Below the pieces are notes generated by a model that did no database searches, was not told the origin of the DNA, and worked only from the letters and a program-made list of their open reading frames with translations. A stretch of 64,000 bases of DNA from an uncultured delta proteobacterium (lineage in GTDB: Bacteria; Desulfobacterota; Syntrophobacteria; Syntrophobacterales; Syntrophobacteraceae): NCBI GenBank assembly GCA_963808625.1, contig CAWEHK010000008.1, forward strand, positions 128,001-192,000, in the 5' to 3' direction. A program made the translations under genes and the position numbers. Position 1 is the first letter of the stretch; the number at the start of each line of letters is the position of its first letter. Of this stretch, positions 5,672 through 20,426 are shown piece after piece.

Positions 5672-5757
5672 CATTGGCATAATTCCCTTCTCGTACCGTG
5701 ATCAAGAGTCACAGACAACCCTCCAGTACAACCCGGCAGAAGTCCTCACCTCGTTCT

Positions 5758-5843
5758 GGTGGGCACGGTAAAGCGCTGTGCCCACCCTACACCGTTGCTC
5801 GCAGAAATCCGAGGTAGGGTGGGCACGTCTTTTTGTGCCCACC
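5758..5843. repeat. GTAG-type REP doublet (inverted pair)
   Basis: GGTGGGCAC..GTGCCCACCCTAC / GTAGGGTGGGCAC..GTGCCCACC. Second copy at 19398. Confidence 0.75.
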
Positions 5844-6113
5844 GGAACTGGTTACGGACCTTCGCCCAGCAGTACTGGAGCGAAGCCACGCATAGGGGGC
5901 GATGGGTGGTGAGGAAGGAAGGCCAAAAAGGCGGTGCGGTATGAAAGGAAATCACTGCTGGAGCTTTCCCGGCAGGAATCACCAGATCACTCTCACGCCG
6001 CCCAGGTCTTGCAGGGAAAAATCCAGGGTATGAGTCAGGGAACCCATAAACATCATGTTCTTGGGATGAGGAAATAGATCCGAAGAAGATTGTTCGCAAC
6101 CAGCAAGGTTCAT

Positions 6114-9100
6114 CTATTCTTGTGGTTCCGGCAACTCCGGGCAGGTCTTGCGGTACGGTTCATCACCCAGGAACTGCCGCCACTCGGAGCGGGTCAGGTT
6201 GCGATTTGCCATGCGGCAAGCTCTTGCTTTCCATGACTCAAGGTCAAGATCCCAGAGGATGACGGTAGCATCCTGACTTCCCGAGGCCAGGGTCTTGCCG
6301 TCGGGGCTGAAAGCGACGCTAAACACGCCATCCTTGTGGCCTCTTAGCGGGTCGCCCATGGGTTGGCGAGTGGTTACCTCCCAGAGGATGACGGTCTGAT
6401 CCCAACTCCCCGAGGCCAGGGTCTTGCCGTCGGGGCTGAAGGCGACGCTTGACACGCCATACTTGTGGCCTCTTAGCGGCTCGCCCATGGGTTGGCGGGT
6501 GGTCACATCCCAGAGGATGACGGTTTTATCCTCACTCCCCGAGGCCAGGGTCTTGCCGTCGGGGCTGAAGGCAACGCTGCGCACGGCTCTTCGTGGCCTC
6601 TTAGCGGCTCGCCCATGGGTTGGCGGGTGGCCACATCCCAGAGGATGACGGTTTTATCCCCACTCCCCGAGGCCAGGGTCTTGCCGTCGGGGCTGAAGGC
6701 GACGCTATCCACGTAATCCTTGTGGCCTGTTAGAGGTTCGCCCATGGGCTGGCGGGTGGTCACATCCCAGAGGATGACGGTTTTATCCCCACTCCCCGAG
6801 GCCAGGGTCTTGCCGTCGGGGCTGAAGGCGACGCTACGACACGCCATCCTTATGGCCTCTTAGCGGCTCGCCCATGGGCTGGCGGGTGGTCACATCCCAG
6901 AGGATGACGGTTTTGTCCTCACTCCCCGAGGCGAGGGTCTTGCCGTCGGGGCTGAAGGCGACGCTGTCACCGCGGTCTTTGTGGCCTCTCAGCGGCTCGC
7001 CTATGGGTTGGCGGGTGGCCACATCCCAGAGGATGACGGTTTTATCCCCACTCCCCGAGGCGAGGGTCTTGCCGTCGGGGCTGAAGGCGACGCTATACAC
7101 AGAATCCTTGTGGCCTGTTAGCGGTTCGCCTATGGGTTGGCGGGTGGTCACATCCCAGAGGATGACGGTTTTATCCCTACTCCCCGAGGCCAGGGTCTTG
7201 CCGTCGGGGCTGAAGGCGACGCTATCACAGGTAACCTTGTGGCCTGTCAGCGGCTCGCCCATGGGTTGGCGGGTGGCCACATCCCAGAGGATGACGGTTT
7301 CATCCCAACTCCCCGAGGCCAGGGTCTTGCCGTCGGGGCTGAAGGCGACGCTTATCACGTAACTCCTTGTGGCCTGTTAGCGGCTCGCCCATGGGTTGGC
7401 GGGTGGTCACATCCCAGAGGATGACGGTTTTATCCCAACTCCCCGAGGCCAGGGTCTTGCCGTCGGGGCTGAAGGCGACGCTCGACACGCCATCCTTGTG
7501 GCCTCTTAGCGGCTCGCCCATGGGCTGGCGGGTGGTCACATCCCAGAGGATGACGGTTTTATCCTCACTCCCCGAGGCGAGGGTCTTGCCGTCGGGGCTG
7601 AAGGCGACGCTCGTCACCGGATCCTTGTGGCCTCTTAGCGGCTCGCCCATGGGTTGGCGGGTGGTCACATCCCAGAGGATGACGGTTTTGTCCCCACTCC
7701 CCGAGGCGAGGGTCTTGCCGTCGGGGCTGAAGGCGACGCTATCCACACGGTCTTCGTGGCCTCTTAGCGGCTCGCCCATGGGTTGGCGGGTGGTCACATC
7801 CCAGAGGATGACGGTATTATCCCCACTTCCCGAGGCGAGGGTCTTGCCGTCGGGGCTGAAGGCGACGCTCAACACGAAATTCTTATGGCCTCTTAGCGGC
7901 TCGCCTATGGGTTGGCGGGTGGTCACATCCCAGAGGATGACGGTTTTATCCCCACTCCCCGAGGCCAGGGTCTTGCCGTCGGGGCTGAAGGCGACGCTCG
8001 TCACGGATTTCCTTGTGGCCAGAGAAAAAGGTGCCAAGGTAAGGGTTATGGAGAAGGGCATTCATAAGACTGCTTTTCGCTTCAAAGGTGTCATGGGCAC
8101 GCCATGATTCCACCCCCAACAACAGGGCCTGGTCCAGCTGAGTGTCCAACCGGTTTAGCGCTTGGGCAGCCAATTGGCGGGACAAGGCTATCCTGCGTTG
8201 CTCATCCGCCTTCTTCTCATTAGAAATTGCGATCTGAGTCTGAGAACGTGCGAACTCAGCCTGTTCTTCGGCTCGCCGGGCTTCGTTCCCCGCTCGCCGC
8301 CACTGCATCCCGGCAAGTCCTGCCAGAACCAGGAAGACGAGGGCTGCCGCAAGCGCACCGATGGTTATCCGCCGCCTCGAGCGCTCCCTGGCTGCCCGCT
8401 CACGTTCCCTCGCAGCCATGCTCTCCCTGATGAAGTCCTGTTCACCGGGTGGCAGGTCTTGAGGCCTTTCCGCAAGCCAACGCTCCGCCTCCGTGAGCGG
8501 CGCCCCGCGCAGGAGGGTCTCCGCATCATGATCGGTGCGCTCCCACTCTTCCAGAGCGACTTTCAACCGCTGGGACCACAGCAGGAACTCCCGGTCTTCG
8601 TCCACCCAGCCCCGCAGCCGCCCCCAGTTCCGGATGAGGGCCTCATGGGCCACTTCAACGCTTTGCACCCCGGTGGCCCGGTCCTGCCCCGTCACCAGGA
8701 GTCGTGCGTCTGCCAGGTTCTTCACCAGCGGTTGGGCTGATTCGGGCACTTCGGTTATGGCGGCGCGCCGCCGGGTATCTTCCACCCCCTCTCCGGGTTT
8801 TACCAACTGCATGAACACGCTTCGCACCATCTTCTGCTCGCGGGTCCGTCAGCCGTGCGAACAGTTCCTCCGCGCGGCAGGCGATGGCGCCCTGGACTCC
8901 TCCCATGGCCTCGTAGGCTTCGTGGAGCAGTTGGCCTCCATGGCGCTTTTCCCAGAGCTCCGTCAGGACGAACTCGAGCAGAGGAAGGTTTCCGGGCTCT
9001 TCCCTCACATCGTTCAAGATCCGCTTGACCAGGCCCGGTTCGAAGTTCAAACAGACCTTCTCCGCAGGACCCACAACCGCCCGCTCCAGTTCCTCCCCGG

Positions 9101-10182
9101 TCATGGGACCGAGATTGACCACGGCGTCCTGCAGGCGATCGGCCAGGGGGCGGTAGCTCAAAGCATGGCCGAAGAAATCCCCCCGAAGGGTGAGCACAAC
9201 GGTGAGGGAACCCGCCGCCGCGGCCTCGAGCAGTTGGTCGATGAACCGGGCGCGGATGGGTTCATCCTGGCAGAGGGTGTAAAGCTCCTCCCACTGGTCG
9301 GCCAAAAGGAGGAGGCGGTCCGTTCCGGGTTGTTTCTCGAGAGCTCGGGTCACCACGTCCCGCAGAGCCACCTCCCCTTCGGCAAAAGCCCTCCCCAGTT
9401 TCCCTATCTCGCGCAGACGCTCCGTTTCCGTCATCGCCGGCTCGAGGAGCGGGATCAGGGCAGCAGCCAGAGCATGCAGAGGGCGGTCACCGGGAACGAG
9501 GGTGGCCACGTCCCAAACCTTTCCCCCGCCTTCCCGCCTGAGGCGTGGCACCAGCCCTGCCCGAGCCACGGAGGACTTGCCGCAGCCCGAAGCCCCGACG
9601 AGTGCCACCAGGCTCTGCCGCCTGGCAGCTTGCAGCAGCTTGTCGGTGAAGGTTTCCCGTGCCGAAAAAGAAGGAAGCGTCTTCCTCCCGGAAAGGGCGC
9701 AGTCCACGGTAGGGGCAGACGGCGGCGAGGGTCGCCTGAATTCTTTCCTGGAAGGCGGGGCCCGGAGCTTCTCCGCGTATCGCTGCCGCGAGGATCTCCA
9801 GGGCCAGGGGGCTTTCCTGCCGGCTGCTCAAGTCCACCCAGGTGTTCAGGGAAAGAAATCCCAGGGCCGGTTCCGCCGCGGCAAGCAGCACGGGAATGAC
9901 CGGGAAGCGGGGATCACGAGCCTGGCGGTCCAATGCCAGATCTTTCTCCCGCTGCTGCCAGCGGCCCATTCCCTGGGGTCCGAGGAAGACCGCCACGGCG
10001 CGGCAGGAGTTCAGAGCCTCTTCCAGCGCCTGGGGCCACGGACGCCCGGCAACCAGATACCATCGGTCCAGAAAGACCTTCAGATCTCGTTCGCGCAAGG
10101 CCCAGGCAACATTTTCCACCGCCTCGCGATCCCGCCAGTTGTAGCTGAAAAAAACGTCGTATTTTTCGGGAGCAGGATTCAT
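6114..10182 (-). CDS. NLR-like TIR - nSTAND1 NTPase - TM - WD40x14 protein (about 6 frameshifts)
   Basis: TIR: YDVFFSY...W..RE. STAND: CPYRGLRPF, Walker A GASGCGKSS, Walker B LLLADQWEE, PGNLPLL, VEVAHEALIRNW. TM ITIGALAAALVFLVLAGLAG. WD40 array, then C-terminal ACRMANRNLTRSEWRQF...TCP. Confidence 0.9.
6250..8030 (-). repeat. 14 tandem 129-bp (43-aa) WD40 repeats with very high internal identity
   Basis: GGGGCTGAA (AFSPDGKTLASGS) recurs about every 129 bp from 6303 to 7981. Confidence 0.95.
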
Positions 10183-10236
10183 CGGATCACCCCTGTATCG
10201 AGGTTATCGTTGAATAATTTCCAGTGTGTTGAAATA

Positions 10237-10270
10237 AGAAACTGTCCAAGAATAACTTGCGCCCATTTCA
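10237..10270. mobile_element. Isolated end of the MITE family seen intact at 53287
   Basis: AGAAACTGTCCAAGAATAACTTGCGCCCATTTCA versus AGAAACTGTCCAAAAATAACTTGCACCCATTTCA (2 mismatches). Confidence 0.65.
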
Positions 10271-10422
10271 TCTTGAACAATGAGTTTGATAAACGCATCG
10301 CCCAGAGGCTTCAGCGCCTGCGCCGTCGCGGGAAACAGGGACCCGACCGCCACGCCAATGACGATGCCGCAGATGACGCGGAAATAGAGCGTCCGATGGA
10401 ACGTATGTTTTTGCCCGGACAT
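10271..10422 (-). pseudogene. dctA: 5' fragment of C4-dicarboxylate transporter DctA
   Basis: RBS AGGAGG. RTLYFRVICGIVIGVAVGSLFP...LKPLGDAFIKLI is the DctA N-terminus; it stops after about 50 codons at the MITE end. Confidence 0.75.
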
Positions 10423-10589
10423 CTATTCCTCCTATAGCAATCGACGGCATACGGGTGGCCAAGGTGAGATGATAAGAAATGGCTCTTTGAAAGTCTTTGG
10501 ATAGCACCTGTCGTGGATACTGTCAAAGACATTCAGGTGCCGATTTCTTGGTAGGCGATAAGGAAAACCATCTTTAGGAAAAACGGGTG

Positions 10590-10790
10590 CGGGCTCGGAA
10601 AACCGCATGGGGTTTCCGCGATTGGTCTCTGAAGTGGCCCTCGGCAAGGGAGGGGCCATTCTGGGCTTGGAGGTCAGCCGGTTGGCAAGATCGTGCTCGG
10701 ACTGGTACCGCCTCCTGGAGGCAGCCGCCCTGGCCGGGGCGCTGATCGTCGATGAGGAAGGGATCTACGATCCGAACGAGCACAATGCTC
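10590..10790 (+). pseudogene. Internal fragment of a large serine recombinase
   Basis: GFPRLVSEVALGKGGAILGLEVSRLARSCSDWYRLLE...IVDEEGIYDP. Similarity ends where the CHAT gene's 3' end overlaps it. Confidence 0.75.
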
Positions 10791-13682
10791 TAAAGAGCTG
10801 GTCAGGCATGGCATTGGGATCGCCATACAGGATGAACGCCAGGCGATCCATCCGGTTTGTCTCCAGCGGAATATCTCGCTTGGCCTCCCGCAGGCACTGG
10901 CCCATGGTGTAGGTTCCCTTGAGCAAAGACTCATAGAACTTTTTGACGAATTTCCTGGCGGAAGCGGAGTCAATGTTCCACAGCGTTCCGACGTAAGCCT
11001 CGACGCCAGCCCGCAGGAAGGCGCTGGGCAAGTCATAGGTTTGGTTCTCGTAGATCGCGGGCCGTGGATCGGCAGGGGTCGCGCTCTCGCACGATGAGCT
11101 GAACACCAGGACCGGCGGGGCCCCCTGGAGCGCGCTGGTCAAGAGATCGGTGGTAATTCGGCCGTCCTTCAAGGCCCATCCGCTGTCCTCGCCGTCGAAA
11201 CCACTGTGGCCAGAGTAGTGGATCAAGCCGTACTGTCCGCTGCTCAGGCGCTCCAACAGCGCCATCCACTCGCATTGCTTCGAGCCCATCAAGACGTCTT
11301 CATCTTTGATCTCAAAACGGCCGTCGCCCAGCAGCATCGTGCGCAGGTCTTCGATCTCCTCACGAGACGCCGACAGGTCATCGGTCGGGTCGCCAATCAG
11401 CAGGGTCCTAACCTTGGCGCCACCTCGCACGGGCGGCCGGATATTATGCGCTTCCGGTCCGACGATACTACGCCCGACCATGAATGGAAGGTCCTTGCCG
11501 GCATAGGCCGCCTCCAACATCAACTCCCATGGGATATGCTGCAAGCCTTCGTCGATGGTAAACAAGATCGTCGCATCGTCCGGCGGGTTGTCGAGATACC
11601 TCTTGATGGCGTCGGTCGTAAAGTAGGTCCGGATAAAATCTGCAACTTGCTCCAGGTTCTGCTCCAGGTTCTCCTTCGCCGTAGAGGCGTCGGACGGGGC
11701 CGGGTGCAGCAAATGGTTGACACGTTCTCGATAGCCTGCCAGGAACCGAGCCTTGGTGTCTGCTGTCATTCGCTTCTGGGCCGAGACGAGATGCGCACCG
11801 CGTCGGCCAAACAAGGTAGTGACAACGTTCGGATGAGGCTGGAGAAAGCGCGATGACCACGTCTCGTGGCTTGTCCTCGCGGCGATCCAGCAGGCCGAAA
11901 TAGCCCAGGAGCCATTCGGCAAAGGAGTCTACCATGAACTGGGCCGTTCTGGGGTCCGCCGTGTCGGTGAGATAGCCATGCCGGTCAAGCCAAACAAGCC
12001 ATTTCTGTTGCAAGTCGAGCCTGGGATCATCCTGTACCAACAGAGCCTGGTACTTCTCGCCAGCGTCCTTTTCTTTGTCGAGGACCCCGATCAACTGCGC
12101 GAGCTTCGCTCGCGGTTAACGGCCGCTGCCAGCGTCTTCAGGGTGTGCTTCTCCTCTTCGTTCAGCGGGCGGAGCAGGGCTTCAAAGAACTCGCGGCGTG
12201 GGCGCTCAATGTCTTGGATGGCACGATCATGGGCTTTTGTTGACCCATTTGCTTCCTTTTCATGGCGGATGAGCGCCGATGACGCCAGGGCAATGAGATA
12301 GGGGTGTCGCCCAGCCTCTGTGCTGACAAAGTCGGTGCTCCGCCTTCAGCCGGTTCCCGCATCAGGTAGGTCTTAAAGAGCTGTCACCCACTGTGTTCGC
12401 TCGTCTTCGGTGAGGCATGACAACCATACCAGCTTGATGGCGCTGTCGAAGCAAGCGCTCACCGCTTCCTCGATCATTTCTGTGGAACTGGCACTCACCT
12501 TATCTCGCATGTCCCTGTATCGGCGCTGGTCATTCACCGCAATGATGAATTGCGCCCCGGCTTTCTCCACGTCGTCCAGCACCTGCCAGAACATACGATG
12601 TTCTTGACTGGCTTCTTGGCTTACGGCCTCCGACAGAGGCACCCGCGCTATCCTGCCTCATCTTCCATGCTGGCTCGTCGACCAGGAACAGGAATCGCCG
12701 GTTGCGATCGCTTTCGGTTTTCAGGAAGTCCTTCAGCGATTTCTCCGGATCATCGCCGTCAAAAGCCTTGCGGAGCTCTTCCTTCTTGTCTTCCTCTTCG
12801 ATAGCCTCCAGGCTCAACAGGAACTTGCGATAGACGAAGTCTTCGGCCGTGTTCTTGTGCAACCGCCCGAAACTCACCTTGCCTACTTGCCAGTCCCGAA
12901 ACAGCCGCTCGGCATCAGGATCGTGGGCACGATAAAACAAGTGCTCCAGCAGCGCCGTCTTGCCCATATTCGGGCTGCCAAGGACCAGGACCCGGCGCCC
13001 ATCGCCGACTGCGCTTTCGATCTCCTTGATCTCAGCCTCACGGGCGCCGAAATCGCGGGCCTGCAGGCCATACAATGCTGCATCATGAGGCGTGCCCAGG
13101 ATACGCTCCGCCTCCTTAACGTATTTCTCGTTGTTTTCACGTTGCGTTTCGTAGCCTGCGTCCGCTTCTGGAGGAAGAAAGAGGAGGATATAGATCGACT
13201 TCAGCCCGCGCGGGGATGCCAGGAAAACCTTGAGGGCCGTGCACATCTGGCGAGCACATGAGCCGAATCCAACTCTTACCCGGCCTGTGGCAAAGGCAGG
13301 CAGCGCCAGGCTAGCTATCGAGAGCTTCTCCGCCTCACGCAGGCAATTGATGGTGACCTCGTAGACCAGTTGCTCTAAAGTATAGTTGTCCGGTGTCGTA
13401 GTCGATCACGGCGCCATGCAGGACGTGTTTCACGTTCAGACCCTGGCTTGGCAAATCGCCAGGTCCAGTGACCACAACCGTGCCGGCTTCCAGGGGACAT
13501 TGGCGATGGGCCTCTTCAACGTATGCCGGACCGGCTTTTTTGGCCAGCTGGAGAGAGACACCGGCCCCCATCGTGAGGTAGTTGTCGTCGCTGCTCGCCA
13601 CAGCGTCGACCGACGCGGGCGGATTCAGGATGTTACCCTCACAGATCTCGACCGTCGTGTTGCCGAATTGAAACTTAGCCAT
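10765..13682 (-). CDS. Macro domain - STAND/AAA-like ATPase - CHAT (caspase-like) protease fusion, about 970 aa (about 6 frameshifts)
   Basis: Macro: GNIL...DAVASSDDNYLTMGAGVS...VLHGAVI...SLALPAFATG. ATPase: GAREAEI, GSPNMGKT, FLFLVDE, AGRHPYLI (GxP), winged-helix-like WLDRHGYL...F.EW. CHAT: LQHIPWE, LLIGDP, IHYSGHS, FSSSCES, AFLRAG, FILYGDP. Confidence 0.8.
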
Positions 13683-13790
13683 CGGTGCTCCTCATTTTCA
13701 GCTTGCGCTCGGTCTAATCGCCAGCGTCCGCCCCCTGGTGGAAAATGCACTCGGATAGGGGGCGGACAATTTCCATACTACGCCATCAGC

Positions 13791-14713
13791 TCAGAGCGTC
13801 GAAAAGACTTGCAGGGTCCGCAGCTTCGGTCGGAGCATTCGAGCTGTGGCTTCTGCTCGTAACTCTTGAGGTTGGCCGCGGCTAGCTGGATCAGCGGCCT
13901 GTAGGTCAGATCGCCTGTCGGCCCCGTTGATTGCCTCGCCCAAAGCCCAGGTGAACGCCCCGCGCCACGTCGCTGCCGATCCTGGCATCGGCCGCAGTCT
14001 CACGGTCTTCGTACAGGCCGCCAGCAGGACGTGGCGGTCGAAGTCCACGATGCCGAACTTGTTCTGGCGGAAGCGATGGCGCAGTTCTTTCATGAACTCC
14101 TGCATCTTCGACGTCCCACTCCTCAGGTGGAACGCTTTGCAGCATCTTCGACAACTCTGTGCCGACCAGGTGTCGAACTCGGCGTCGCGTTTGCCTGCAT
14201 CGCTTCGATGCGCTCCTGTCGATCTCCTGCGGCGGTATCAGGTAGCGTGGAATGAACTCGACGGTGCTTCCTGGAGGGGCCTCTGGATGCTGCCGCTGTG
14301 ACAGCAATCGGCAATGAAGGTGAAATTGACCTCTGCCGGGAAAATCTCGAAGATGGCGCGCAGGTCGTCGTCACGGAACGGCTTGTCCCAGTCGTGGTCG
14401 TAGGGGACGATGACCTCGTCGAAGCCTTCCCACTCCTCGTTGTTCTGGTCCGTCACCTGCGTGCCGTGGCTGCGAGAAGTGGAAGACCCGAACGTCCTGC
14501 CGCTCTGCTAGTCGTCCAGCAGCCAGCCAGGCCGTCACATATGCCCTGGTTCGTGGCATCCTTGTCGTGTAGGAGCTTGATGTCATTATCTTGAAATCCG
14601 AAGTAGGTAGTCAAGAGGCTGTTCATCTCGATGGTATCGTTGATACAGCCTCGCAGCGCCCAATCAGGGCGGACAAAGTTGTTGATCCCGACCAGCAGTG
14701 CTCGTTTGACCAT
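13791..14713 (-). CDS. Metacaspase/orthocaspase (peptidase C14), several frameshifts
   Basis: RBS AGGAGG. KRALLVGIN...LRGCIND, FHFSSHGTQV (His), DEVIVPYD, IADCCHSG (Cys), LLAAC, GAFTWAL, QKPQL. Confidence 0.88.
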
Positions 14714-15186: not shown

Positions 15187-16125
15187 TTAGGGAGACTCTT
15201 TGACGTTGAGCAGATGCTGGATCACCGGGACCAGTTGTCTGAGAATTTCTTCTCCCTGCTCATTTTCCACCATGGCCGCCAGGATGTATTTCCCTCCCGT
15301 TTCATCCCACACGAGGACCGAATCGGAATACCATACCTGCCAGGTTCCTGATTTCCGGTAGAGATGCGCGAGCGGGATACTTCTTTCCATGACGCTGACG
15401 AACTTGTCATGAATGTCCGGGAAGGACAGGATGTGCAGCATCTGTCGGGAACGCTCCGCGCTGATGAGCTTTCCCGTGGCCAGCAGGTAGTAGAACCGGC
15501 AAACCTGGGTGACGGTTGCCCCGTGGACCAGACCCTTGAGCGGATCGCGATCGACCTCCCCGCTATTGGCGAAGCGCCGGCCCAGCCAGATTCCTCCGCC
15601 CTGGTCCGGATCATAGAAACGATAATTCGGGTCGACGACCACCGCTTCGATCCTGCGCAGACCGATGCGATCAATCATGCGGTTGGTTGCGGCGTTGTCG
15701 GAACGACGCATCATCTCTATCATATCCCGATAAATCTCCGGGGTTTCCACCAGCGTCCCATCCTCGAAACCGCAATGGGCGGAAAAAAGAATGGCGAGCT
15801 TGGCGAGACTGCCCGCATACATCATGGTGCTGCCATTAACCTGGGCGAAACGCGGCGCCGCCGGGTCGGTTAAATCCACCACCCCCACGGCCATTTTCTC
15901 TTCGCTGATCAACGCTTGCCACAACGAGCTCCGCTTCAGGGCTTGCGCCAGCCGGTCCTCGAGGCTGCCGTCTTCATGCGCGGACAGGGGACGCCACGCA
16001 CCCTCGCTGATCGGCACCGGGAGCGGAGGAAGCTCAGCGAGGACAAGATTCGCGGCAAAGAGAAGCGGCGAAAGCAGGGCAAGAAGGCCCGCGACCATAA
16101 ATTTCATGATTTTCCGCCGCATCAT
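15187..16125 (-). CDS. Secreted serine hydrolase, class A beta-lactamase-like
   Basis: Signal peptide; SxxK (YAGSLAKL), SDN and KSG motifs. Confidence 0.85.
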   Translation of the reverse strand: MMRRKIMKFMVAGLLALLSPLLFAANLVLAELPPLPVPISEGAWRPLSAHEDGSLEDRLAQALKRSSLWQALISEEKMAVGVVDLTDPAAPRFAQVNGSTMMYAGSLAKLAILFSAHCGFEDGTLVETPEIYRDMIEMMRRSDNAATNRMIDRIGLRRIEAVVVDPNYRFYDPDQGGGIWLGRRFANSGEVDRDPLKGLVHGATVTQVCRFYYLLATGKLISAERSRQMLHILSFPDIHDKFVSVMERSIPLAHLYRKSGTWQVWYSDSVLVWDETGGKYILAAMVENEQGEEILRQLVPVIQHLLNVKESP

Positions 16126-16173
16126 TTGGAGTCGCCGGGAGGAGGCGTTTTCTTCCTCGTTGCCAGCAGCAGG

Positions 16174-17378
16174 TTAGCCGTTCCCGGCCGATGATGGTAC
16201 CCGACCCCGAAAGAAATGAGGGCGTATGTTCTTCGTCTTTTGATAGAGCTCGGCAAGGTCCTTTTGATACCGATAACTAAAGACCGGTAAGGGTTTCTGG
16301 TAGGTGCCGAAGAGTTTCAGGTTCCATATCGACGGGTCGAAGTACTTTATGGGGATTCCTGAATCGGTTTGCAGAATATGCATGCTGCGGTCAAGGATGA
16401 ACTGTCTTATCGCGGCAAAATCCGGGTCGAACATCAGGTAGGATGAAGCTTTTTCGAAGGTGACAAGGGGGCCGAAGCTCTTCAGGAAAGAGACGAACTT
16501 GTCGTTTTGGTCAAAGGAACCTCGAGCTAAATCGAAACGAAAATAATAAAGGGTCTGGGTTCGTTCCTGACCCTCCCGCTGAAAAACGATGCGCACTCCC
16601 GGAATGCTCCCTCTTTCGGAGGTGATTCGCTCCAGTGCGGGCATCTCCACGATGGTCCTGTTCGGATTCATGAACCAGTGCTGCACATCTGATCACCCGC
16701 ACCTTCTCTCTGGCCATGAACAGCAGGAGGAGCGGGAGAACGCCCTGCATGCCCTTCTCCTGCAGGGCGCTTCCCAGGTTGTTGGTGATGAAATAGTCGA
16801 GATCGAGCAGATCTTTATTGGCGCGCTGAAGGCCGGTAAAGAAAGCCTCGAGGTCGGGCTTTACTCATCGCCGGAAAATCGGGGATTCGGCCGACACGCT
16901 CCAGAGAAATCATGACGTAGGTCCCGGCGTCGGGAAAGAAATTGTACATGTTGGCAAAATCCGCCCCGCTGAAGGGATAAAACACGGTGTAGCGGGAAGC
17001 GTCAACGGCGCTAAGCTCCCGGGCGGCCCATTCCCTCATCGGCGTAAGTCGCCTCACCTCGAGGCCCTTCCAGCTCGCGTTGAAGGATTTGGCAAACTGG
17101 CCCCATGCCGGGCTGCTTTCCAAGGCAGCAAGGGAACCTTTCGGGTTGCTGATGCCGGCAATAAAGAGGGCGTAATCATGGTATGGATGGGTAGGCCGGT
17201 CGGCCTGCTCCTTTTGGGAAACGGTGCTCGTCTCGGTTCCGGGCGTCCCTTCCGCAGCATGGCTCCAGGATGCAAAAAGGCCGAGGGTGAACAGCAGAAA
17301 AACCGCTAAACTGAGCCGTACTTTGACGTCATTGAGCCGCGTCTTCAAGGGGTTCCTCCCTGCGTGCGATGTTCTCAT
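16174..17378 (-). CDS. Secreted conserved hypothetical protein (frameshifted)
   Basis: Signal-like N-terminus, VFYPFSGADF, GVLPLLLLFMAR, TFEKASSYLM, ILQTDSGIP across three frames. Confidence 0.65.
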
Positions 17379-17383
17379 CAAGG

Positions 17384-17764
17384 TCAGCCTCCTGTCTTCG
17401 TGAATTGCCTGGTGGCAAAGAGCCGGTAAAACAGTAGCCCGCATGCCACGGTGATCAACCCTCCAAGGGACGGGAGCGGTCTCTCGATCACCAGGTAGCA
17501 GAGCATCCACCCATTGAGCAACAGAAAAACCGCCGGGGTCACCGGGTACCCCCACGTCTTGAAAGGTCTCTTCGCGTGAGGTTCTTTGACGCGCATAACA
17601 AACACTCCCAGCACCGTCATCAAGGCAAAGAGGGCCAGCAAAAACCCGACATAGGTGAGCACGACCTCGAAGGTTGAGGTGACGACCAGGAAAAGCGCAA
17701 TCGAGGATTGCAGAACGATGGCCCGAACCGGAACTCCTCGGGCATTCCGTTTGGCAATGACCAT
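17384..17764 (-). pseudogene. 3' fragment of an APC-family amino acid permease
   Basis: NARGVPVRAIVLQ...RPFKTWGYPVTP C-terminal helices. No N-terminal two-thirds upstream. Confidence 0.75.
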
Positions 17765-18449
17765 TGGCGGAAAAAAGGGTGACAGGCTTGTGGTCTTCGG
17801 AAATCCCGTTCATCCTCTCTTTCTCATGACAGGGTGATAAAGTGATGAGAAGTTGCTTCTTCGAGAGTGTTGAGTAGCAGATATTGCGGGGTGACGTCAA
17901 TGGCATGAATGGATGCCGTTCCGATCATAACGCCTCCATGGGAAACGGTCCTGAATTTCTGCTACGGGCTATCGGGTTTCAGTCTTTTCTTCCATCAGAA
18001 GCACGTCACCCAGCGAGCTTGACTCGGGCCAAGGTCACCTGCCTCAAATGGCCAACCTCAGGAGATGGTGGGAGGCCCTGGCTTGCGCAAGGTCCCAACT
18101 CAAATATTCAGATCATATGGAAACAATTGGAGGATTTTAAGATGGGCAAGAAAGGCTAGCTTCTTTGGGAACCGGAAAGAGATGAAGTCGTTAATCAGGT
18201 TGGAGTCATTCAATGTTGGAATCGTGAACAGTCTATTTTTGAATTCAAAGAGCTTTGAGACGGTCAGCAACAGAGTAGGCCCTTATTTGATGCTTCGATT
18301 TCCGGGCGAATCTTTTTGGTGGTAATTTTGCCAGTGGACTATTATGCTTACATAACTGTTCGGCGGACTCTTTATGGCCTAGGGACAGAGCCCATTCGGT
18401 CCAGACGGGGGCTTTGGTGAGGGTTGAGCAAATACCCGATGGAGAATCC

Positions 18450-18899
18450 ATGAGAACCAAGATCTTAGCGGCACTCGTGCTGCTCTTTCTGATGCTTGGC
18501 TGTGCTGATGAGGCCCGGACTTCGGATGAGGTATCAAGGCCGGATGTCGCAGCTTCCGAAGCGATAGCCGGAATACCCACTCTAGCAGTCCCTGAGGCAG
18601 AATTCAATTTCGGAGAGGTGAGTGAAGGCAAAGAATACGTGCACGACTTCGTGATCATGAACAGGGGTACAGGGGTTCTGGAGATAAAGAAAGTCAATCC
18701 CGGCTGAGGGACCTCCATAGCCGGTTTCGATCGGTCCATCCCTTCGGGGTCCGAGGGGAAAATATCGATAAGGCTTCATCCCGGAGCCTGTGCGAGCGGA
18801 AGCAGGAAAGTTACCGAGGTATTCTGCAATGACCCCCAATATCCCCGCTTTACACTGGTCGTTCAGGGGAAATTGAAACCAACGGGCACCGAACCCTGA
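18450..18899 (+). CDS. DUF1573-domain lipoprotein with in-frame TGA at 18705-18707 (candidate selenocysteine)
   Basis: RBS GGAG, lipobox LMLGC, FNFGEV...HDF.I.N.G...LEIKKVNPG-TGA-GTSIAGFDRSIPSGSEGKISI...VFCNDP...LVVQG. The domain continues in frame for 63 codons. Confidence 0.8.
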
Positions 18900-19397
18900 C
18901 GGGGTCGGTCGTCTGGGGCCGGACTAAAAGAAGAAGCATGAAAAATGGGGATCTTCGGGAAAAGCTCGATCCCCGGAGATCCGGGAGAGTGTTAGCTGAT
19001 TTTCTCAAGAGAGATACCCGCGGGGACTGAATCACAGGCTTGCCGAAATCAGCAGCCAGACGACAGGATTTTATTTTTCCGCTAGAACCGGCACAAAAGA
19101 AATCGACTTTTTACTGAAGTAGCCCATACCCAGAGGACCAATTTCTCTCCACAGGGTTCGATGTAGAGCATGGATGTTTCGACCCTGATAAGCCCCTTCC
19201 TCCTCCCTTGCTCTGGGCTTGTGCTTGTGGATGCTCAACGGCATTCCGAAGACCTTCGCAGAGCTAATCCAGTCCTTGATCGCATTGATTTTGACCGGGC
19301 ACGGTCCATGGGCAGCCACGTATGAAGTCGACCTTTGTGCCATCGAGTCCGGTTTGGAGATACTCGCACACGTGGGCCGAAATAAGTAGCCGGTTCC

Positions 19398-19471
19398 GGT
19401 GGGCACGGTGAAGCTGTGCCCACCCTACAGTGTTCCCGGACCCGTAGGGTGGGCAGGTTTTTTTGCCCACC
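19398..19471. repeat. GTAG-type REP doublet, second copy
   Basis: GGTGGGCAC..GTGCCCACCCTAC / GTAGGGTGGGCA..TGCCCACC. Confidence 0.75.
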
Positions 19472-19599
19472 GCAAACATGCACGAACTTATGCCCATGTG
19501 CAGTAGACGATTTAGAAGGGAGGAGAGTCAGTTCTCCTGATCCGTTCTGATTCGGTCAAAGAACTGCGGGTATCTTGCTGCCGTTTGGAATTTGAGTTG

Positions 19600-20040
19600 G
19601 TGGCATCGTTGTCGGAACGACGGATCATCTCTACCATGCGCGGACAGGGGATACCGCGCACCTTCGCTGATCGGAATTGGGAGCGGAAGAAGCTCAGCGA
19701 GGACCGGATTCGCGGCAAAGAGAAGCGGCAAAAGCAGGGTAAGAAGGCCCGCGACCATAAATTTCATGATTCTCCGCAGAGCTTCAGGTTCCATATCGAC
19801 GGATCGAAGTACTTTGTGGGGATTCCTGAATCGGACTGCAGAATATGCATGCTGTGGTCAAGGATGAACTGTCTTATCGCGGCAAAATCCGGGTCGGACA
19901 TCAGCCAGGATGAAGCTTTGGTGACTCGTGGTCCCACCATGACCATGAAACCTAAACTGGAGAGCAGAGTGAGGCAGATAAGAAGGGTCATGGCAGTGCT
20001 CCTTCTCACGCCGAAGATAGACTTCGCCGATGCAAGACGA
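19600..20040 (-). pseudogene. Deleted mosaic duplicate of permease / hypothetical / serine hydrolase genes
   Basis: About 19605-19632 copies 15690-15720, 19633-19775 copies 15975-16115, and 19780-19917 copies 16312-16450. 19925-20040 encodes the APC-like IFG...LLSSLGFMVMVGPRV. Confidence 0.8.
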
Positions 20041-20426
20041 ACGCGTTTATTCTTGCGGTCGCTGCCTGAATCATCTATAATGAACGGGATGGCTGTTTTA
20101 CTTTGCATGCTAGCGTGTAATTGAGCCCGGGGAATCCGAATCCTGGCAGCATAGTGCTCCTGAGGCTCCAACCAAAGGATACAATGCTGCCATCTCCATA
20201 TCAGGAGACTCGAATAGCAGCAAAGATCAAGATCCTCGCACCAGGAGATTTTCTCGAATTCACTCCCAGCGGTGCCATTTTTTGTGATAGATTTGAGTGC
20301 TCTTCAAAACAGTTTTAAAGATGCCGATGTTTGGTCTGTGGAGAGATTGTTGGCCTGGTCATTCTGGAGGGTCGGCAATGGTAGAGAGTGGGTTGCTTAC
20401 AAAACAAACTAATGAGGAGGTGCACT

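Follow-up and report, generated by a model that had tools for sequence, protein, structure and literature searches.

Organization of the caspase-MAC locus

The DNA studied is a window of 64,000 nucleotides (positions 128001 to 192000 of contig C8) from the genome of an uncultured deltaproteobacterium of the Syntrophobacteraceae, assembled in 54 contigs and 84.6% complete. On its minus strand, a gene for a stand-alone C14 metacaspase lies directly upstream of a gene for a Macro-NTPase-CHAT protein, for which MAC is used here as a working name. A first-pass annotation had described a C14 caspase gene about 108 bp upstream of a co-oriented Macro-STAND-CHAT gene (STAND, signal transduction ATPase with numerous domains), and the Pfam domains, together with a gap of 108 bp between the caspase stop (13791) and the MAC start (13682), bore this out. 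The pair comprises the following features, in window coordinates.

13791..14713, minus strand: stand-alone C14 metacaspase (Pfam PF00656; frames mapped by tblastn against the L023 caspase; homologues of about 305 amino acids [aa])
13100..13682, minus strand: Macro domain, N-terminus of MAC (PF01661; Pfam span 13335-13682)
11850..13100, minus strand: central P-loop NTPase with helical and winged-helix regions (STAND/Cdc6-like), MAC (AAA_16/ATPase_2; AAA_16 span 12530-13246)
10765..11850, minus strand: pseudo-protease plus CHAT protease module, C-terminus of MAC (PF12770, E 1.6e-23; CHAT span 10765-11922)

The catalytic motifs are legible in the window DNA for the caspase (His, 14471-14460; Cys, 14312-14292) and for CHAT (His, 11220-11206; Cys, 11103-11083), as is the Walker A motif of MAC (12979-12956). 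The MAC gene runs to its natural end, with a tblastn match to residue 975 of the 976 of homologue P0002. A promoter and terminator scan of the locus gave results at chance level. As assembled, no open frame spans the caspase gene, the MAC gene or the TIR gene described below; intact homologous operons are present at loci L014, L019 and L023.

Conservation and distribution of the pair

MAC was found at 5 loci in assembled genomes, all of them Chloroflexota metagenome-assembled genomes, and at 21 metagenome loci. These 26 loci were reduced to 22 distinct ones by removing the near-identical L020, L024 and L026 and merging L033 with L027. A caspase gene lies directly upstream of MAC in 11 of the 13 distinct loci with upstream DNA; the two-gene core of the first-pass annotation is conserved elsewhere. 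The distance between the genes was 9 to 278 bp in the 10 loci measured, and in one case (L017) the caspase is fused to a metallo-beta-lactamase domain. The exceptions are L018, where MAC is split and the genome contains no close caspase, and L022, considered below. Distances among cognate caspases and MAC proteins correlate (Mantel r = 0.93, p = 0.0002, n = 10 pairs). Caspase-MAC is a real, conserved and rare two-gene module.

In a reverse test, flanks were analyzed for the 10 best non-self caspase matches (G585 omitted), from 26 matching genomes among 401. The best-supported caspase clade in a quick tree has 13 rows (10 MAC partners plus L095 and L096/L097), and all 13 precede a CHAT gene: the L095 caspase precedes two CHAT-NB-ARC-TPR genes and the L096/L097 caspases a CHAT-repeat gene. 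For more distant caspases, CHAT was nearby in none of 7 loci (4 with at least 16 kb of flank, 3 on short contigs). This caspase clade keeps its CHAT partner while the sensor changes. The window caspase nests among the MAC-linked caspases, which, in this unrooted tree, fits transfer of the pair; caspase and MAC probably entered the window genome as a unit that was stripped of the usual downstream companions. The initiator-CHAT/executioner-metacaspase cascade of the first-pass annotation thus gained genomic support from adjacency, correlated divergence and the CHAT-bound caspase clade.

Related arrangements were also noted. At L095:6305-17562 (G811:C6), a gene that fuses metallo-beta-lactamase and caspase, with 78% identity to a MAC-linked caspase, lies upstream of the two CHAT-NB-ARC-TPR genes and an alpha/beta-hydrolase gene. 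In L017 this fusion stands upstream of MAC, and its metallo-beta-lactamase part in L095 matches the LmuA and Avs1a models. The window genome itself carries a frameshifted cluster of caspase, hydrolase and CHAT-TPR-S genes (L105:5385-12739, G000:C28). More distant stand-alone metacaspases at L103 and L104 lie, as judged by eye, beside restriction-modification-like genes.

The MAC family is rare but conserved. With the CHAT piece as query against 1.84 billion representatives, about 28 matches stood apart at the top, with 16 proteins of 905 to 1171 aa that carry Macro and CHAT, and a MAC profile search recovered 68 clusters at 90% identity, most of them full length with both domains. Three cluster source names bear a taxon: Caldilinea, Caldilineaceae and Anaerolineae. 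MAC was not found on viral contigs, among 121 further genomes from the class of the window genome (query, the AAA piece) or in 400 genomes of the class of G413, and 300 genomes of the window's phylum yielded CHAT-region matches only. A word-index search with the AAA piece returned nothing, which is weak evidence since the CHAT piece later found the family, and an atlas search with the same piece returned generic AAA/STAND-like clusters only. For the two MAC proteins compared with NCBIfam, no model passed its cut-off, and PADLOC-DB 2.0 contains no model for MAC, giving three marginal single-member matches among 33 alignment members; the caspase matches the generic PADLOC model PDLC02987.

CHAT matches in close relatives of the window genome were considered as MAC homologues and rejected, their architectures being different when inspected by eye (cyclase-CHAT-TPR, hydrolase-macro-like-CHAT). 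The relatives (L002, L003, L007 and L009-L012; L004-L006 and L008) commonly carry, as judged by eye, cyclase-like-CHAT-TPR-CsgG-like proteins and hydrolase-macro-like-CHAT proteins of about 1050 aa.

Domain organization of MAC

The AlphaFold model of homologue P0002 (976 residues; predicted local distance difference test [pLDDT] 85) served as the structure reference. MAC has the order Macro, NTPase, CHAT and carries no C-terminal repeats, the reverse of the bacterial nucleotide-binding leucine-rich repeat-like (NLR) layout, in which the effector is N-terminal and a repeat sensor C-terminal.

A Macro Pfam match was obtained for 26 of the 33 MAC alignment members. The domain matches TTHA0132 (2dx6; E 3e-21) and PARP14 macro 1 (Z 23.3), and its pocket is conserved (Asn42 and Gly49 in 26/26, Asp or Asn in 23/26). 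A loop-2 aromatic, which belongs to MacroD hydrolase chemistry, occurs in only 2 of the 26. Because the binding residues are kept and this aromatic is mostly missing, the sequences suggest that the MacroD-like domain is an ADP-ribose binder rather than a hydrolase. The best NCBIfam macro models are named 'ADP-ribose-binding protein', all far below cut-off.

The STAND label given to the central region in the first-pass annotation is borne out only in part. Residues 201-604 of P0002 align with the archaeal ATPase 2qen, which we take to be an MJ-type STAND (Z 14.1 over 312 residues), and residues 202-500 with the ORC-Cdc6 chain 7jgr_G (Z 14.2); a GxP-like motif of the helical region has its Gly, His and Pro in 30/30. 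AAA_16, for its part, was detected in 17/33 members below cut-off, and hhalign of MAC against an nSTAND1 protein gave a probability of only 27%. The family Walker motifs are mostly degenerate: in Walker A, GK is kept in 25/26 and the next S/T in 14/26, and in Walker B the first Asp is kept in 26/29 and the second acid in 4/29. The window copy, unlike most of the family, has canonical Walker A and B motifs. The scaffold probably binds nucleotide and hydrolyzes it poorly, and the proposal that ATP drives STAND oligomerization is weakened.

Residues 615-969 of P0002 align to separase, Csx29 and SAVED-CHAT as a pseudo-protease plus active protease module, and the CHAT dyad is conserved throughout the family (His 32/32, Cys 31/31). 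A complex prediction of the macro domain and CHAT module with the caspase scored 0.01; it allowed no verdict and was used neither for nor against an interaction.

Domain organization of the caspase

The caspase consists of a p20 region, a short linker, an Arg-containing motif, a helical insert and a p10 region. Its closest solved relatives are the metacaspases AtMC4 (profile E 1e-41), yeast Yca1 and AtMC9. His83, Cys138, Asp26 and Asp136 are each present in 10/10 caspases, and an acidic loop is conserved; the His-Cys dyad, the acidic S1 residues and the metacaspase fold place the protein among the C14B metacaspases. Residue 157, after the catalytic Cys, is basic in 10/10 (Arg in 9, Lys in 1), with a hydrophobic P4, and helices are predicted at 163-217 (model pLDDT 66, linker below 50). 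AtMC9 and AtMC4 have an autoinhibitory basic motif and a helical UNK domain between p20 and p10 (PMC10235996). By resemblance, the Arg/Lys157 motif is a putative autoinhibitory motif of the type II metacaspase kind.

Genes surrounding MAC

In the 13 loci with at least 2.4 kb downstream, a SIR2 gene is nearby in 8, and an nSTAND1-repeat gene, usually together with the SIR2 gene, in 5. As background, the approximately 25 Mb of the five host genomes contain 15 SIR2_2 matches, and SIR2 lies within 10 kb of MAC in 4 of the 5 genome loci; in G415, the genome's two SIR2_2 genes and its sole nSTAND1 gene are beside MAC. The Asn and His motifs are kept in 10 of the 11 SIR2 proteins checked.

Among the 19 distinct loci with at least 700 bp downstream, a TIGR00052/NudF-like NUDIX gene follows MAC in 11, a transmembrane (TM) protein gene in 12 (weak 8xMP match; DUF4760 once), and one or both in 13. 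ADP-ribose is a plausible input to MAC, because the macro pocket is conserved and SIR2 and NudF-type genes are neighbors. A more specific role for the NUDIX protein, as a dedicated eraser of the MAC signal, was downgraded after a reverse search found the NUDIX clade without MAC.

Several other arrangements were noted around these genes. Pairs of 8xMP-like or DUF4760 protein with NudF-type NUDIX occur in variable settings at L014:19542-21164 and, without MAC, at L128-L134 (seven Chloroflexota-class genomes); in L022, the membrane protein and NUDIX are fused. Nothing was found on 8xMP/RipA in the literature searched. SIR2-trypsin fusions are encoded at L014:18151-19530, L015:17635-19174 and L016:13146-14543, the L014 trypsin domain seemingly lacking its catalytic His and Ser. 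Directly downstream of MAC, L029:1503-3521 encodes a SIR2-like-CHAT fusion, its CHAT seemingly without the catalytic Cys. A frameshifted cluster of SIR2, nSTAND1, DUF7379/LCAT and CHAT genes lies elsewhere in the window genome (L106:4039-13345, G000:C53), and its SIR2 could be a source of ADP-ribose in trans.

Comparison with known systems

SAVED-CHAT cleaves and activates PCaspase, and the two are found in Haliangium ochraceum type III-B CRISPR and cyclic oligonucleotide-based antiphage signaling system-like loci (10.1101/2023.06.23.546230). Caspase-MAC resembles this system in its pairing of a nucleotide-sensor-CHAT fusion and a free-standing C14 caspase within one locus, with the dyads of the two proteases intact, and in the fold of its CHAT module (Z 18.3 against 8tl0). 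It differs in its sensor, a macro domain plus STAND-like NTPase scaffold with no SAVED, in the direct adjacency of its caspase, which resembles plant and fungal metacaspases, and in its SIR2, NUDIX and TM neighbors. SAVED gave no Pfam match in the 33 MAC members, and the PADLOC SAVED_CHAT model matched 1/33 at E 8e-4; Cas10, CD-NTase, PCi, sigma factor and kinase were all absent from the 92 MAC-neighbor open reading frames scanned out of 208. Our best reading is that caspase-MAC would work like SAVED-CHAT/PCaspase and, because it has no SAVED, is not a member of that system. The candidate new system of the first-pass annotation has no PADLOC model for MAC, but its closest known counterpart, SAVED-CHAT/PCaspase, which that annotation did not name, would work alike.

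Type IV Thoeris, composed of TIR and the caspase ThsE (10.1101/2024.10.24.620036), is similar in that a signal derived from NAD is proposed to reach an Arg-specific, promiscuous C14 protease. Caspase-MAC, in contrast, lacks a conserved TIR as well as any C-terminal extension of the caspase, and its signal would reach the caspase through a second protease. In type II Thoeris (10.64898/2025.12.03.692087), a macro domain likewise reads an ADP-ribose-type signal (His-ADPR), but the effector is a membrane pore rather than a protease and a TIR partner is required. The main text of that survey of Thoeris types contains neither 'CHAT' nor 'nudix'. MAC loci lack the conserved adjacent signaling TIR of types II and IV, the window TIR being NLR-fused and genus-resident.

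The pseudo-protease plus active protease C-terminal module is shared with Craspase Csx29 (TPR-CHAT) and separase (Z 21 to 23); these, unlike MAC, are regulated by Cas7-11 or securin via TPR or helical repeats and have no macro domain or NTPase. The plant type II metacaspases AtMC4 and AtMC9 (PMC10235996) share with the window-type caspase the absence of a prodomain and the succession of p20, linker, basic motif and helical insert before p10. The window-type caspase, on the other hand, is bacterial, 305 aa long and genetically tied to a CHAT protease, its motif having a presumed role. Conflict systems of multicellular bacteria (PMC7159879, PMC8195603) share EAD8, nSTAND1, inactive trypsin and caspase with alpha/beta-hydrolase, all seen in the neighborhoods analyzed, and the named hosts are Chloroflexota; the MoxR-vWA, VMAP or EACC1 core described in those sources was not seen at MAC loci. 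No description of a Macro-NTPase-CHAT protein was found in the literature searched, which covered texts without supplementary tables.

Proposed mechanism and alternatives

From the observed architecture, conservation, catalytic residues and linkage we infer, step by step, an ADP-ribose-gated CHAT-to-metacaspase cascade, a reading to which, taken whole, we give an even chance. NAD+ breakdown during infection would yield ADP-ribose or a close derivative, which the macro domain would bind. In most hosts its source would be the linked SIR2-type enzymes; any other NADase or ADP-ribosyltransferase, of host or phage, could also supply it. Binding would make the STAND-like scaffold change its shape or its oligomerization, and this may in turn switch on the separase/Csx29-type CHAT module. 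CHAT would then cleave the metacaspase encoded beside it, at or close to the conserved Arg motif that follows the catalytic Cys, relieving autoinhibition, and the freed Arg/Lys-specific metacaspase, by likeness to PCaspase and plant type II metacaspases, might degrade many proteins and lead to dormancy or death.

SIR2 and TIR NADase effectors share ADP-ribose as a by-product, and phage enzymes that consume NAD release it too. A broader proposal, which we advance only tentatively, is that MAC is a guard receptor for free ADP-ribose from any source, with the NudF-type NUDIX setting the threshold and the metacaspase clade acting as a shared executioner for interchangeable CHAT sensors.

A number of observations count against the ADP-ribose-gated cascade. 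As regards the pair, the 490 bp available upstream of the intact L022 MAC contain no caspase, the L035 caspase, although linked to MAC, is not in the best-supported clade of the quick tree, the loci are not independent of one another (L036, L037 and L039, for instance, are closely related), and the Mantel correlation could reflect host relatedness. As regards the signal, SIR2 is absent from 5 of the 13 loci, and the NUDIX clade occurs in 9 genomes without MAC, of 400, where a TM gene accompanies it in 7, nSTAND1 lies beside NUDIX in 2 and SIR2 in 1. TM-NUDIX is therefore a module in its own right, the ADP-ribose-related neighbors of MAC may reflect a shared island, and no TM or NUDIX partner was found at E 1e-5 in the window genome (84.6% complete). 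As regards the cut, the phmmer alignment puts the motif of AtMC9 some 20 columns downstream, and the equivalence of the autoinhibitory motifs is drawn from motif likeness and position only. Metacaspases normally self-activate with calcium (PMC10235996), so that cleavage by CHAT may be unneeded. Finally, compared with intact homologues by tblastn, 5 frame changes interrupt the 0.9 kb of the window caspase gene, and at least 4 the window MAC.

In one alternative, the cascade is real and its trigger is something other than free ADP-ribose. The macro domain would read ADP-ribosylation on a protein or nucleic acid, or the degenerate NTPase region would sense an invader molecule directly, with SIR2, NUDIX and TM as mere island neighbors. 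The occurrence of TM-NUDIX without MAC in 9/400 genomes agrees with such a trigger, as do the pairing of the same caspase clade with TPR-sensor CHAT proteins that have no macro domain and the loss of Walker residues (S/T kept in 14/26, second Walker B acid in 4/29). Inactive STANDs have moreover been proposed as nucleic-acid sensors (PMC8195603), and macro domains handle both soluble and conjugated ADP-ribose (PMC9503650). We nevertheless consider this alternative unlikely: NUDIX follows MAC in 11/19 loci in varied chromosomal settings although its clade is present in only 10/401 class genomes, and the proximity of SIR2 (within 10 kb in 4/5 genome loci) includes the G415 case, in which the SIR2_2 genes and the sole nSTAND1 gene stand beside MAC.

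Less probable still is a parallel or reversed action of the two proteases, in which a Ca2+-activated metacaspase processes MAC or another substrate, or both enzymes cut a third target; the role would then be housekeeping or stress proteolysis and not a death cascade. The conserved acidic loop does match metacaspase Ca-binding regions. The third target could be the 8xMP-like membrane protein, given that a TM protein (weak 8xMP) or DUF4760 protein follows in 12/19 loci, or a SIR2 fusion, the SIR2-trypsin proteins with seemingly lost trypsin residues (L014) being possible substrates or decoys. The caspase alone, however, is nearly constant, the TM gene being missing here and in 7/19 loci, and the solved sensor-CHAT relatives are regulated proteases of narrow specificity that act upstream in their pathways (10.1101/2023.06.23.546230).

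The neighboring TIR-nSTAND1-WD40 gene

Beyond the end of MAC lie three further features.

10607..10780, plus strand: serine recombinase (resolvase) scrap (PF00239 at about 10610-10771, E 0.001, below cut-off)
10268..10541, minus strand: dctA upstream region and first 48 codons (10422-10279), 94% aa identity to the G007 DctA N-terminus
6114..10182, minus strand: TIR-nSTAND1-TM-WD40 gene, NLR-like (Pfam TIR_2 at 9487-10182, nSTAND1, WD40)

In the full model of the first-pass annotation, the TIR-nSTAND1-WD40 protein is the dedicated sensor and signal maker of a Thoeris-like three-gene system. The gene does lie on the same strand as MAC, 0.6 kb away, with its TIR Glu motif present (9960-9946), and the nSTAND1-repeat genes near MAC in 5/13 loci, usually with SIR2, could be seen as functional analogues of TIR-nSTAND1. 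It does not follow MAC directly, though, since the plus-strand resolvase scrap touches the MAC stop and is succeeded by the first 48 codons of dctA; no full copy of either was found by tblastn elsewhere in the genome, and the abutting scrap is a probable rearrangement scar. The truncated dctA start runs directly into sequence from upstream of the TIR gene, and the match between G007 and this gene ends at 10237. G007, a genus relative, carries the TIR-nSTAND1 gene (C362) at 94% nucleotide identity and with an intact frame, next to a divergent upstream marR and with caspase and MAC absent there. TIR was detected in none of the 26 homologous MAC loci (two-sequence profile), in none of the 92/208 neighbor open reading frames scanned by Pfam, and, as TIR_2, on none of the MAC contigs of the 5 host genomes, all of which have TIR_2 on other contigs.

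A conserved three-gene system was rejected because the scraps intervene, the G007 copy lacks the pair and the homologous loci have no TIR. The role of the TIR gene as a conserved partner is largely refuted, and the full model is very improbable. The first-pass annotation had itself ranked the two-gene core above the TIR link, and the counts agree (11/13 loci versus no TIR in 26). The TIR-nSTAND1-WD40 gene is probably a genus-resident chance neighbor outside the caspase-MAC module; its product could still supply ADP-ribose to MAC in trans.

The TIR gene contains 14 WD40 repeat cores. Its repeats (6249-8020) show about 90% DNA identity among the 14, with a period of 129 bp and variable positions, a pattern typical of fast-evolving repeat sensors. 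Short repeated extragenic elements, present in several to many copies in the genome and genus, occur at 5720-5880, 10460-10580 and 19368-19506, one of them between the resolvase and dctA scraps. Further along the window, a Beta-lactamase2-family gene and its neighbors occupy 15187-20171, part of which is duplicated at 19528-20171 and on contig C34.

Reading frames of the window genes

The frame changes in the window are not confined to the pair. Over 2.1 kb of TIR-nSTAND1 sequence, 4 one-base indels separate the window gene from the intact G007 copy, and the nuo genes, compared like the others with three same-genus relatives, carry 3 (nuoM) and 7 to 9 (nuoL) one-base indels per approximately 1.9 kb; the other window genes compared have none. 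No in-frame stops were found in the six caspase pieces or three MAC pieces tested. An extra base at 14473, responsible for one caspase break, is absent from related-strain contigs in two runs (single contigs, depth about 5); none of these contigs spans the locus. Because of the nuoM and nuoL indels and the missing extra base, the frameshifts are probably assembly errors rather than true decay. That the window locus is a decaying remnant of a family functional elsewhere, as the 5 caspase frame changes in 0.9 kb, the operon cut at the MAC stop by gene scraps and the missing TM/NUDIX partners might indicate, is scarcely credible when essential-looking nuo genes carry patchy one-base indels too, the caspase and MAC pieces have no in-frame stops and the additional base at 14473 is missing from related strains.

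Significance

The literature searched yielded a single bacterial CHAT-to-caspase cascade, one that responds to cyclic oligoadenylate. A macro-gated version, if true, would connect immunity based on NAD+/ADP-ribose with caspase cascades independently of TIR, and the uncharacterized SIR2-nSTAND1 genes of Chloroflexota would gain a downstream effector. The caspase, for its part, looks like the bacterial equivalent of a plant type II metacaspase, and a single activating Arg is predicted in it; the activation of bacterial metacaspases thereby becomes a question of two proteins and one ligand.

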